DNA of 64,000 nucleotides from an uncultured Gaiellales bacterium (lineage in GTDB: Bacteria > Actinomycetota > Thermoleophilia > RBG-16-64-13): assembly GCA_964631965.1 (NCBI GenBank), contig CAZWAR010000003.1, positions 2,064 through 66,063 of the forward strand, given 5' to 3'. This document shows, piece by piece, positions 10,020 through 46,990 of this stretch. A program made the position numbers and the translations under genes. The number at the start of each line of letters is the position of its first letter. The first letter of the stretch is position 1. The notes under the pieces are model-generated. The model was not told the origin of the DNA. It was given only the letters and a program-made list of their open reading frames with translations, and did no database searches.

Positions 10020-10190
10020 TAAGACCCCTCAGCCTCATGGCCCAGGGGTCCGCAGAGCGATGGCGTACGCTCCGGTCTTCTCTCCTCCAGACTGTACTGT
10101 CGGCCCAGGGATTCCACCTGGTCTGCCCCTGAGGGCTCGCGGGCTGTCACCGCCGGTAGGGAATTTCACCCGACCCCGAAGACCAACTAC
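10020..10190 (-). ncRNA. FMN riboswitch (RFN element) with expression platform, upstream of ribD
   Basis: Minus-strand RNA GGUCUUCGGGGUCGGGUGAAAUUCCCUACCGGCGGUGACAGCCCGCGAGCCC...GGUGGAAUCCCUGGGCCGACAGUACAGUCUGGAGGAGAGAAGACC matches the FMN aptamer consensus almost base for base (aptamer about 10074-10186, P1 GGUCUUC/GAAGACC). Downstream, a hairpin GACCCCU...AGGGGUC includes the GAGGGG Shine-Dalgarno 5 nt before the ribD ATG at 10019. Confidence 0.9.
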
Positions 10191-28231: not shown

Positions 28232-28304
28232 TGCCCACGGCAGGATTCGAACCTGCGACACCTGGCTCCGGAGGCCAGTGCTCTATCCCCTGAGCTACGT
28301 GGGC
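28232..28304 (-). tRNA. tRNA-Arg (anticodon CCG)
   Basis: Minus-strand GCCCACGTAGCTCAGGGGATAGAGCACTGGCCTCCGGAGCCAGGTGTCGCAGGTTCGAATCCTGCCGTGGGCA. It has a cloverleaf with a D-loop (AGCTCAGGGGATAGAGC), an anticodon loop CU-CCG-GA and a T-arm (GGTTCGAATCC). The CCA tail is not encoded. Confidence 0.85.
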
Positions 28305-44369: not shown

Positions 44370-45911
44370 CTACTTGGCGTAGTCGACGGCGCGGCTCTCG
44401 CGGATGACGGTCACGCGGATGGTACCTGGGTAGTCGAGTTCCTGCTCGATCTCTTTCGCTATCTCGCGGCAGAGCAGACCGGCGGCCTGGTCGTCCACCT
44501 CATCCGGCTTGACCAGCACGCGGATCTCCCGGCCCGCCTGGATGGCGTAGCTCTTCTCCACCCCCGGCCTATTCTCCGCGATGCGCTCGAGGGACTCCAG
44601 CCGCTTGATGTAGGTCTCCAGGGTCTCGCGTCGGGCACCCGGCCGAGCCCCGCTCACCGCGTCTCCCGCGGCCACGAGCACGGCCTCGACGGTCTGCGGT
44701 TCCACCTCGGCATGATGGCTCTCGATGACGTGCACAACCATCTCGGATTCCCCATACCGACGCGCGAGGTTGGCTCCGATGGCGGCGTGGGATCCCTCCA
44801 CCTCGTGGTCGACGGCTTTACCCAGGTCGTGCAGCAATCCGGCCCGCTTGGCCAGCTTGGCGTTGACCCCCAGTTCGTTCGCCATGAGTCCGGCGAGGTG
44901 AGCCACCTCGAGCGAGTGCATCAGCACATTCTGCCCGTAGCTCGTGCGGAACTTCAGGCGGCCGAGCAGACGAAGGAGTTCGGGGGCCAGCCCATGAACG
45001 TTGGCGTCGAGCACAGCCTGCTCGCCCGCATCCTGGATCTCCTTCTCCACCTCATCGCGAGCCTTGGAGTACATCTCCTCGATCTTCGCGGGGTGGATGC
45101 GCCCGTCGGCGACCAGCTTCGAAAGAGTCAGCCGGGCTATCTCCCGACGGACTGTGTCGAAGCCTGACAGGACGACCGCTTCCGGCGTGTCGTCGATGAT
45201 GAAGTCGATACCGGTAAGGTTCTCGAGCGTGCGGATGTTGCGCCCCTCCCGCCCGATGATTCGGCCCTTCATGTCGTCGGACGGCAGCGGAACCACCGAC
45301 ACCGTGGTGTCGGCGACGTGGCTGGCGGCGGTCCGCTGAATGCATGTGGAGAGGATGTCTCGGGCCCGGCGGTCACCTTCGTGCCGCGCCTCCTCCTCGA
45401 TGGACCTGACCATCTTGGCCATGTCGTGCCGGACCTCATCCTCCGTGCGCTTGAGGATGATCTCCGCAGCCTGGTCTCTCGTCATCCCCGAGATCTCCTC
45501 GAGTTGGCGCTGCTGCTCCGTCCGGGCCGCCTCGGCCTCCTCCAGCACCCGGCGGTAGTGCACCTCCCTGTCGCTGACCGACTGTTCGCGTCGGGACAGG
45601 TCCTTCTGCATCTCGTCGATGCCCTCTTCCCGGTTCAACAGCCTGTTCTCCAGCTGCACCAGCTCCTGGCGGCGTTCTTTGATCTCCGCCTCAGCCTGGG
45701 TACGCAGCTGGTGCATCTCATCCTTGAGTTCCACCCGAGCTTCGCGCTGTATCGCGTCAGCCTGCCGCTGCGCATCCTGAACGATGCTCTCCGCAGCCTT
45801 CTCGGCGGAATTGATCTTCGCTTCTCCCACGTATTTGCGAGCCAGGAAGCCCGCCACCACCCCGATGATCGCTACCACTAGGACCACAGCGATCCACACG
45901 CCAGTCATCAT
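44370..45911 (-). CDS. rny: Ribonuclease Y
   Basis: 513 aa with an N-terminal TM helix, coiled coil, KH domain and HD domain (SLEVAHLAG...LLHDLGKA). Confidence 0.9.
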
Positions 45912-45986
45912 CTCTTCATCACCATTCCAGTCCGCACGTGCGATTCAATTCACATATCAGGTGTGCGAAGATCGTTCGTGGACATG

Positions 45987-46010
45987 AAAAAAGCCGAACT
46001 CACGTCCGGC
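45987..46010 (-). terminator. Rho-independent terminator (hairpin GCCGGAC-GUGA-GUUCGGC followed by UUUUUU)
   Basis: Read directly on the minus strand. Confidence 0.7.
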
Positions 46011-46217
46011 CGATACAATCCAAACAGGTGACCTCGCCCTACAGAGGAGCAGCCCTTACCGGCGAGTCGGCCGCCTCTACCAGCAGACCCCCGCACGGTT
46101 ATGTTCCCCGCAATCTAAGTCTTCGGCTCCGACGCTTCGCCGGATACGCCGACTTACAGAGCAATCTATAGCCAAACGGCAAGGTCGCGCGCTACCGCTA
46201 TCGACCGATCATCACAC
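45987..46217 (-). ncRNA. Candidate ~230-nt non-coding transcript between recX and rny (promoter to intrinsic terminator)
   Basis: Bounded by a TTGACA-N17-TAAACT promoter and a hairpin+U6 terminator. No ORF of 60 aa or more lies on this strand. Predicted closing stem UCGGUCGAUA/UAUCGGCCGG. Confidence 0.45.
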
Positions 46218-46224
46218 TCAGCGG

Positions 46225-46253
46225 AGTTTACGTGTACAGAGATAAAGTGTCAA
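46225..46253 (-). promoter_or_regulatory. Sigma-70-type promoter (-35 TTGACA, 17-nt spacer, -10 TAAACT)
   Basis: Minus-strand ttgacactttatctctgtacacgtaaact. The -35 overlaps the recX stop codon. Confidence 0.55.
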
Positions 46254-46990
46254 GGAATGCTGGGGGATTCTGGCTCGGAGTCGGTCTCCCTGCGCATCTG
46301 CGCCACCACCCGGTCGATGGTATCCCAGTCGTAGCCACGCCTGGCTAGGAACCCCGACAGCCTTCGCTGGGCGCCCTGAGGATCGGAAAGGAACTCTCCG
46401 CCGAACCGTCGGCGAATGGTCTTCTCGAGAGCATCCGGCAGAGCATGGTCTTCCGGCAAGCGGTCCTCGGCGTCTTCCGCCGCACGAGAAGCTCCCTTAC
46501 AGGCCGCCAGTACCTCTTCTACGACCGGACGTTCTACCCCCCTGCCGACCAGTTCCCCACGGATCTTCCGCGGGCCCCATCCGCTCCGCTCCTTCTCCGC
46601 GGCGTATGCGGCTGCGAACCGGCGGTCGTCGAGGTATCCCAGCCTGACCAGCCATTCGACCGTGCTGCCCACCTCGTCCGCATGGAAGCCCTCTCTGTGA
46701 AGCCGCGTCTCCACTTCCCTGACCGAGCGATCCCGCACACTCAGAAGACGGAGTGCCTGCTCCCGAGCCCTGTACGGCCCGTCCTGCTCGATGAGGTCCT
46801 CCTGTTGCTCGACGGTGAGGATGGCGCCGGCGCGCAGCCCGGCGCGATCGGCGACCTCGACCGCCAGGTCGAAGGCCCTCCGTCCGTCGAGGTGGACTGC
46901 GACTCGCTCGCCCCGACCGCGCCGGGCCACGAGGGCCGTGACCTCACCCTCACGCAGGAGTAGAGGTCCTTTCCGTCTGGAGACCTCCAC
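46250..46990 (-). CDS. recX: Recombination regulator RecX
   Basis: 246 aa with RecX three-helix repeats; immediately downstream of recA. Confidence 0.85.
   Translation of the reverse strand: MEVSRRKGPLLLREGEVTALVARRGRGERVAVHLDGRRAFDLAVEVADRAGLRAGAILTVEQQEDLIEQDGPYRAREQALRLLSVRDRSVREVETRLHREGFHADEVGSTVEWLVRLGYLDDRRFAAAYAAEKERSGWGPRKIRGELVGRGVERPVVEEVLAACKGASRAAEDAEDRLPEDHALPDALEKTIRRRFGGEFLSDPQGAQRRLSGFLARRGYDWDTIDRVVAQMRRETDSEPESPSIP

Follow-up and report, generated by a model that had tools for sequence, protein, structure and literature searches.

RNase Y initiates most mRNA decay in the bacteria that possess it, and to our knowledge the setting of its level is known only for Bacillus subtilis, where it proceeds via mRNA decay. 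A stretch of 64,000 nucleotides (nt) from an uncultured Gaiellales bacterium (contig CAZWAR010000003.1; hereafter the window, meaning this stretch at its full length) raises the question of whether the supply of this enzyme may also be set by transcription. On its minus strand, 338 nt separate recX from rny, the gene of RNase Y, and a first-pass annotation based on the letters of the window had proposed that this spacer holds a small RNA (sRNA), a cis-acting leader attenuating rny, or both. Comparison of related loci and structure prediction lead us to favor, with moderate confidence, a cis-acting 5′ leader of an rny-miaB-miaA operon that would act as a transcription attenuator. The cis-acting half of the earlier proposal is supported by the position of the element, the lack of a second promoter, a conserved 5′ untranslated region (UTR) and lineages without the terminator, whereas the comparative data disfavor a free-standing sRNA.

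A conserved element upstream of rny

The comparison covered 180 rny loci from genome and metagenome scans (designated by L numbers), and the gene order was looked up on twelve contigs. Its RNase Y protein assigns the organism to uncultured Thermoleophilia-type Actinomycetota; matches with identities of 75-93% include those of Thermoleophilia bacterium and Actinobacteria bacterium RBG_16_64_13. Every relative looked up has the order recA-recX, a spacer of 310-410 nt, and rny-miaB-miaA. Searches with nhmmer, using the spacer and then a spacer profile, matched the stretch directly before rny in L001, L081-L100 and L161-L180 and gave no match elsewhere (E-values of about 1e-20 to 3e-62). The first-pass annotation had made its proposal dependent on conservation in relatives, and the region is conserved: about 36 related metagenomic loci have the promoter, a 5′ element, a covarying core and a covarying terminator in the space between recX and rny. 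About 140 other rny loci lack the leader element, and the Firmicute rny loci among L002-L160 were matched neither by nhmmer nor by the structural model R2 described below. The element occurs as a single copy in the window and was never seen away from rny. It is confined to one uncultured clade of Thermoleophilia-type Actinomycetota. The case for the leader rests on this conservation, because in one sequence the promoter, the terminator and the fold energy are each within chance; one promoter-like site was observed where 0.3 are expected by chance in 3 kb, and two terminator-like sites where 1.2 are expected.

The near-consensus sigma-70-type promoter reported at the end of recX is present at that place (Table 1), with the recX stop codon TGA inside its −35 hexamer. 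Its pattern, CTTGACAC-N17/18-(G)TAAACT, is kept in about 36 related loci, and the promoter was also called in L098 and L178. Judged solely from the position of the −10 hexamer, transcription would start at about 46218-46217, and GUGUGAUGAUCGGUCGA is probably the first 17 nt of the RNA. Across 16-29 homologs, this 5′-terminal element keeps CGGUC without exception, and GUGUGAUGAU and GA almost without exception. No second copy of the element was found in the window with up to three mismatches, and the combined pattern of promoter and 5′ element matches 36 loci, all of one related group.

The intrinsic terminator with a GUGA loop, which had also been noted before rny, is found there with eight pairs, one of them G·U, instead of the seven counted earlier; 75 nt lie between the end of its U run (45987) and the rny ATG (45911). 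A terminator hairpin occupies the homologous position in 30 of the 33 homologs checked. Its stem is paired in 99.6% of the alignment cells, with double changes in four of the eight pairs, and the consensus among relatives is CGGCCGRGC-N4-GCUCGGCC followed by U residues. Of 30 homologs, about 24 have a good U run, and weak runs occur in L001, L082, L091 and L171. With its G+C-rich hairpin, U run and compensatory changes, the element is a predicted Rho-independent terminator. In L001 (2895-2925), a C-to-G change in the terminator 5′ arm (GGCGGGGC) breaks one terminator pair and one antiterminator pair; either decay of this copy or an error of assembly may account for it.

The 75 nt after the terminator are likewise conserved (...UGACCNAACCAGGCGGCGGUGACGCGCGCGANUGGAGUGGUGR-N4-5-AUG), with a very small hairpin as the only predicted structure, and a sigma-70-like promoter between the terminator and rny was found in none of 30 homologs. 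Because no sigma-70-like promoter was found for rny at this place, because the post-terminator UTR is conserved, and because the element never occurs away from rny, we regard it as a leader rather than a free sRNA gene. Two pairs of loci, L098/L099 and L178/L179, retain the promoter and the 5′ element (GACGAACGGUUGAC and GACGAUCGGUUGAC) and have no terminator at the homologous place; since the promoters are kept without a terminator, they must feed rny. These loci lie at about 2050-2410 in L098/L099 and about 1670-2000 in L178/L179, and in L098 the terminator 3′ arm is apparently deleted.

No open reading frame (ORF) in the leader is conserved among relatives on either strand, which makes the leader a feature of non-coding RNA rather than a small gene. 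The longest minus-strand ORF in the recX-rny spacer spans 48 amino acids (aa), in agreement with the earlier remark that the sense strand has none of 60 aa or more. A leader peptide or small protein was considered and rejected: ORF position and length vary, and some homologs have no ORF of at least 25 aa. The possible start codons in the 5′ element (GUG UGA; AUG AUC GGU CGA UAG) are not conserved as a frame. A 77-aa ORF antisense to the leader (Table 1) also varies in position and length among relatives, some of which lack any antisense ORF of at least 25 aa over the leader, and it is probably not a gene.

The leader also falls outside catalogued families. A search of the recX-rny spacer against Rfam 15 with E ≤10 returned only a chance snoRNA match, at 20.8 bits versus a threshold of 50, and neither rne5 nor a T-box or known riboswitch. 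The whole window, scanned at gathering thresholds, gave no match in the leader, with an FMN riboswitch and a tRNA elsewhere, and fifteen homologous loci gave no match. These covariance-model scans agree with the earlier failure to recognize SRP, 6S, tmRNA or RNase P in the region. A full-text literature search found no published structured motif upstream of rny. We class the leader, about 230 nt long, as a new RNA family of a known type, a putative attenuator leader of a ribonuclease gene.

Predicted secondary structure of the leader core

RNAalifold with default settings on MAFFT alignments recovered only the helix P1 and the terminator, and the model R1 (16 pairs) was poor and was discarded. 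The structure in model R2, which comprises 160 positions and 42 pairs, was derived from RIBOSUM-scored RNAalifold and three hand-added pairs. It predicts a core with a three-way junction closed by P1, from which the arms P2 and P3 emanate. P1 pairs ACCUUGC(C) with (G)GCAAGGU across the relatives in 95-96% of cells. The P2 helices are 73-88% paired, with double changes in 9 of the 13 modeled pairs; the P3 helices are 73-86% paired, with double changes in 13 of 20. The base of P3 consists of GGGG and YCCC in relatives, and the sequence of its terminal hairpin is unrelated between lineages (CUGCC/GGCAG, CUGAU/AUCAG, CUAU/AUAG, GCCGC/GCGGC and CGUGCC/GGCACG). Together with the promoter, the 5′ element and the terminator, the most conserved blocks are CGACCUUGC and its complement GGGCAAGGU, GCCGRRGACUUAGAU, and UGGGG. 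Conservation extends to the A/U-rich junction strands (GGCUAUAGAUGG, UAGAU and GAGUUAGG), of which the UAGAU of J2/3 follows the P2 arm.

On a sequence-only MAFFT alignment, 82% of core cells are paired, compared with 40-51% for slid partners, and double changes occur in 18 of 39 core pairs versus 12.6 ± 2.3 in shuffles. On the alignment fitted to R2, the corresponding values are 83% versus 38-49%, and 22 of 42 pairs versus 14.8 ± 2.4, and none of 500 shuffles reaches the observed value. Because the fitted alignment leans toward the structure, this covariation is good but not definitive support for the core.

A search with R2 found 28 loci with E-values of 4e-15 to 2e-41, including L095, which was outside the seed alignment, and gave no match in 139 other rny loci. 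The core was not recognized in L091, L097-L099 and L171-L179, which keep the promoter and the 5′ element and, except for L098/L099 and L178/L179, the terminator as well. In folds of truncated transcripts of L097, L171, L173 and L175, the antiterminator described below still closes a large central domain of different sequence, and the leaders of L171-L177 and L097 could, by these predictions, form a second structural subtype. Within the leader family, conservation is higher in the switch parts than in the core, whereas in riboswitches the aptamer is usually more conserved than the switch parts. This may come about because two partners each have to be paired by the 5′ element and by the terminator 5′ arm. 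In L089 (860-890), L167 and L168, the 3′ strand of P1 is doubled in tandem (GGGCAAGGUGUAGCAAGGU), an arrangement that would allow two alternative registers of P1 in the model.

Candidate antiterminator pairing and a proposed attenuation model

The first-pass annotation had drawn attention to complementarity between the two ends of the interval, and both stretches of it are present (Table 1); they correspond to P1 and to a candidate antiterminator. In the window, the antiterminator has 10 base pairs, adjoins P1 and extends it: UCGGUCGA(UA) of the 5′ element pairs with (UA)UCGGCCGG and covers six of the eight nucleotides of the terminator 5′ arm. Of 29 distinct homologs, 27-29 have standard pairs at its seven core positions. 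Because CGGCCG is a palindrome, similarity of the two strands could imitate this complementarity. In L175 and L177, however, the palindrome is broken. Their 5′ element reads CGGUUG versus the terminator arms CAGCCG and CAACCG, a double change from C-G to U-A; the 5′ element is the complement, not a copy, of the altered arm. The terminator 3′ arm is changed to match too, making up one three-way compensatory event. The remaining changes in the antiterminator are wobble-compatible and fit both the antiterminator and the terminator.

Folding of the full leader favors the terminator state by 4.6 ± 3.1 kcal/mol (n = 30 homologs), and in most homologs the two states are close in predicted energy. When transcripts were truncated just before the terminator 3′ arm, 23 of 30 homologs had a best fold with six or more of the seven core antiterminator pairs. 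Under a looser criterion (partners in the first 26 nt for at least six of seven arm nucleotides) the antiterminator was found in 25 of 30, and in controls with the first 22 nt shuffled this criterion was reached in 19%. For the window RNA from 46217 to 46000, both the best fold and the centroid contain the antiterminator. A local 5′ hairpin, P0, would compete with the antiterminator for the 5′ element and overlaps P1 by the nucleotides ACC. Pairing of the 5′ GAUGA with the linker UCAUC was also considered and was dropped for lack of support from variants in L081, L085 and L087.

In the attenuator that we favor, transcription would start at the conserved promoter near 46218, and the first ~190 nt would fold as the three-way-junction domain closed by P1. 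The 5′ end UCGGUCGA would then pair with the terminator 5′ arm UCGGCCGG, lengthening P1 into a long rod and blocking the terminator hairpin. In this antiterminated state, RNA polymerase would read through, and the rny mRNA produced would carry ~307 nt of 5′ UTR. Were the 5′ element unavailable, being held in P0, bound by a factor or removed, the terminator would form and an RNA of ~230 nt would be released as a by-product. We infer the start site, actual termination and switching from the sequence.

The architecture would be the same, and only the signal different, if the three-way junction were an aptamer, as in an ON switch of the pbuE type, and binding of a metabolite or an RNA-binding protein stabilized P1 and the antiterminator and turned rny on. 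Because P1 runs directly into the antiterminator, a stabilized P1 would favor read-through. This contiguity, the covarying arms with their conserved junction strands (GGCUAUAGAUGG, UAGAU and GAGUUAGG) and the small energy difference between the states all fit such a switch. However, the supposed aptamer is the least conserved part of the leader, R2 failing in the divergent members named above (L091, L097-L099 and L171-L179); the core has no similarity to any Rfam aptamer, and the operon of rny, miaB and miaA suggests no ligand. We consider an ON switch of this kind unlikely.

Several results weigh against attenuation itself. Because both strands of the antiterminator are almost invariant, its support comes down to a single compensatory event, shared by two related sequences, and to changes that suit the terminator as well. 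The energy of the antiterminator duplex is only about 1.2 standard deviations better than that obtained with shuffled 5′ ends (mean z of −1.2) and was set aside, as too weak, as stand-alone evidence. P0 is paired in 89% of cells with zero double changes, and only 9 of 30 terminator-state folds contain it, compared with 19 of 30 folds of the first 50 nt; it is retained as a weak part of the model and not as a robust competitor of the antiterminator. The fold energy of the window RNA is not significantly better than that of shuffles (z = −1.0 to −1.4), and the core is unrecognizable in divergent members that keep the switch parts. Finally, the 5′ element is kept in loci without the terminator, and therefore antitermination alone does not explain its conservation; L098/L099 and L178/L179 show that this element has a role beyond antitermination.

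Much of this would be expected of a constitutive structured 5′ UTR without a switch, in which a fixed partial terminator also ends recA-recX transcripts and the 5′ structures shield the rny mRNA from 5′ exonucleases. The antiterminator complementarity would then be a by-product of the near-palindromic CGGCCG/CGGUCG, since similar sequences pair easily when CGGCCG is self-complementary. A duplex energy barely above shuffles, a P0 without covariation and a 5′ element that persists without a terminator are all in keeping with this explanation. It is at odds with the broken palindrome of L175 and L177, in which CGGUUG stands opposite CAGCCG and CAACCG, with the truncated folds, where the antiterminator wins in 25 of 30 homologs against 19% in controls, and with the close energy balance in most homologs, and we regard it as distinctly unlikely. 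Highly improbable is an independent gene for a trans-acting sRNA, with the 230-nt RNA as its product and rny served by terminator leakage or recA-recX read-through. In its favor, the unit is discrete, with a strong promoter at one end and a good terminator at the other, its structured core is conserved, and other bacteria have terminated leaders that can function in trans, but the element is strictly kept immediately 5′ of rny in every locus, none of 30 homologs has an alternative rny promoter, the promoters in L098/L099 and L178/L179 must feed rny, and a conserved antiterminator would be purposeless for a plain sRNA.

If the leader is a cis-acting attenuator, its input signal may be feedback from RNase Y itself, a suggestion that we make tentatively and with rather low confidence. 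We favor it because of the autoregulation in B. subtilis, the site preference of RNase Y, and the presence of G/A in the conserved unpaired A/U-rich stretches of the leader. In B. subtilis, RNase Y cuts its own 164-nt rny 5′ UTR, mostly in the first 50 nt (PMC10303841), and the enzyme favors G/A within unpaired, A/U-rich sequence that is followed by structure (PMC11780869). The sole conserved A/U-rich unpaired stretches of this G+C-rich leader are the 5′ UGAUGAU and the junction strands UAUAGAU and UUAGAU, and each contains G/A. RNase Y would accordingly be expected to cut at the 5′ GUGUGAUGAU, at UAUAGAU in J1/2 and at UAGAU in J2/3, and such cuts would destabilize either the antiterminator or the read-through mRNA. 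By analogy with the reported cleavage preference, J1/2 is a possible RNase Y site (PMC11780869). A more specific proposal, which we hold to be very doubtful, is that the leader senses RNase Y activity cotranscriptionally, by cleavage-dependent attenuation instead of mRNA decay. A cut in the nascent leader near its 5′ end or in the junction strands, or the ensuing trimming by a 5′ exonuclease, would remove or loosen the antiterminator strand; the terminator would then form, and transcription of rny would abort.

The rny locus and its relation to known leaders

The minus-strand gene order in the window is recA, recX, rny and a miaB-like gene (Table 1), and the recX product contains three RecX Pfam domains. 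The G+C content is 0.535-0.61 over 45800-46299 compared with 0.64-0.75 in the flanks, as the first-pass annotation had described for the interval between the promoter and the terminator. The rny gene begins with ATGATG, the first ATG of which is missing from several relatives. The conserved start codon in relatives is the ATG before ACN, which is the second ATG here, and the true start may therefore be 45908. The two RNAs detected elsewhere in the window by the Rfam scan are included in Table 1.

Table 1. Features of the recX-rny region and other elements of the window (positions in the window; single-strand coordinates of paired segments are given 5′ to 3′ on the minus strand)
Feature	Position	Strand	Details
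Sigma-70-type promoter	46225..46253	minus	TTGACA 46253-46248, TAAACT 46230-46225, 17-nt spacer, 10/12 matches
5′-terminal element	46201..46217	minus	GUGUGAUGAUCGGUCGA; near-invariant in homologs
Candidate antiterminator, 5′ strand	46199..46208	minus	UCGGUCGAUA; 46208-46199 pairs with 46015-46006
Candidate antiterminator, 3′ strand	46006..46015	minus	UAUCGGCCGG; overlaps first 6 nt of terminator 5′ arm
P0, local 5′ hairpin (weak part of model)	46183..46206	minus	GGUCG(A) 46206-46201 with CGACC 46187-46183
Structured core, predicted three-way junction closed by P1	46031..46185	minus	R2 131 bits, E = 1e-36
Helix P1	46185-46178 and 46038-46031	minus	ACCUUGCC pairs with GGCGAGGU
Junction strand J1/2	46156..46177	minus	GUUUGGCUAUAGAUUGCUCUGU; A/U-rich, predicted single-stranded, holds conserved GGCUAUAGAUGG
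P2 arm	46117..46155	minus	AAGUC..GGC..(hairpin UCCGGCG/CGUCGGA)..GCC-GAA-GACUU; constrained fold
P3 arm	46046..46109	minus	Base GGGG 46109-46106 with CUCC 46049-46046, irregular stem, terminal hairpin CUGCU/GGCGG 46086-46071
Predicted intrinsic terminator	45987..46011 (hairpin 46011-45992)	minus	GGCCGGAC-GUGA-GUUCGGCU + U run; 8 pairs including one G·U
Post-terminator rny 5′ UTR including ribosome-binding region	45912..45986	minus	GGAAUGGUGA here; GGAGUGGUG in most relatives
rny (RNase Y)	44370..45911	minus	Pfam RNase_Y_N, KH_1 and HD domains
recA	48076-47003	minus	
recX	46990-46250	minus	
miaB-like gene	44304-42952	minus	
77-aa ORF, probably not a gene	45938-46171	plus	Antisense to leader
FMN riboswitch (RF00050)	10071-10187	minus	114.5 bits versus gathering score 66.2, full-length
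tRNA gene (RF00005)	28232-28304	minus	69.9 bits

Autoregulatory leaders of ribonuclease genes are established in Escherichia coli, examples being the rne 5′ UTR (RF00040, rne5) and the leaders of rnc and pnp. The rny leader resembles them as a structured 5′ leader before the gene of a main decay-initiating ribonuclease, presumably matching supply to demand. It differs from them in that they act through mRNA stability and not through an intrinsic terminator, and in that their products are RNase E, RNase III and PNPase instead of RNase Y.

In its predicted mechanism, the leader is closer to ON riboswitches such as the pbuE adenine riboswitch and to protein-controlled attenuators (the RAT of BglG/LicT, and PyrR), with which it shares mutually exclusive terminator and antiterminator helices; the antiterminator here extends the junction-closing helix. 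In contrast to these types, the core is ~155 nt long and unrelated to known aptamers, and the antiterminator takes its 5′ strand from the extreme 5′ end of the transcript, ~190 nt away from the partner strand. There is also a likeness to the sRNAs that premature termination releases from 5′ UTRs: a working terminator would yield a discrete structured RNA of ~230 nt, and this RNA could have a second function.

The closest counterpart is the rny 5′ UTR of B. subtilis, which precedes the same gene, has its own sigma-A-type promoter and a long leader (164 nt), and is the target of feedback (PMC10303841). A long rny 5′ UTR transcribed from its own promoter is predicted here as well, with ~307 nt as judged from the promoter position. 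Control in B. subtilis acts via mRNA decay, and the word "terminator" does not occur in that report (PMC10303841). The ~307-nt leader described here, by contrast, has an intrinsic terminator, a candidate antiterminator and a covarying three-way-junction core, and cleavage by RNase Y is a prediction in this case.

Taken as a family, the leader adds to the uncultured Thermoleophilia-type actinobacteria an uncatalogued structured RNA of ~230 nt for which a concrete secondary-structure model is now available. If the attenuator proposed here is correct, it would be the first case known to us in which the supply of RNase Y is set by transcription attenuation.

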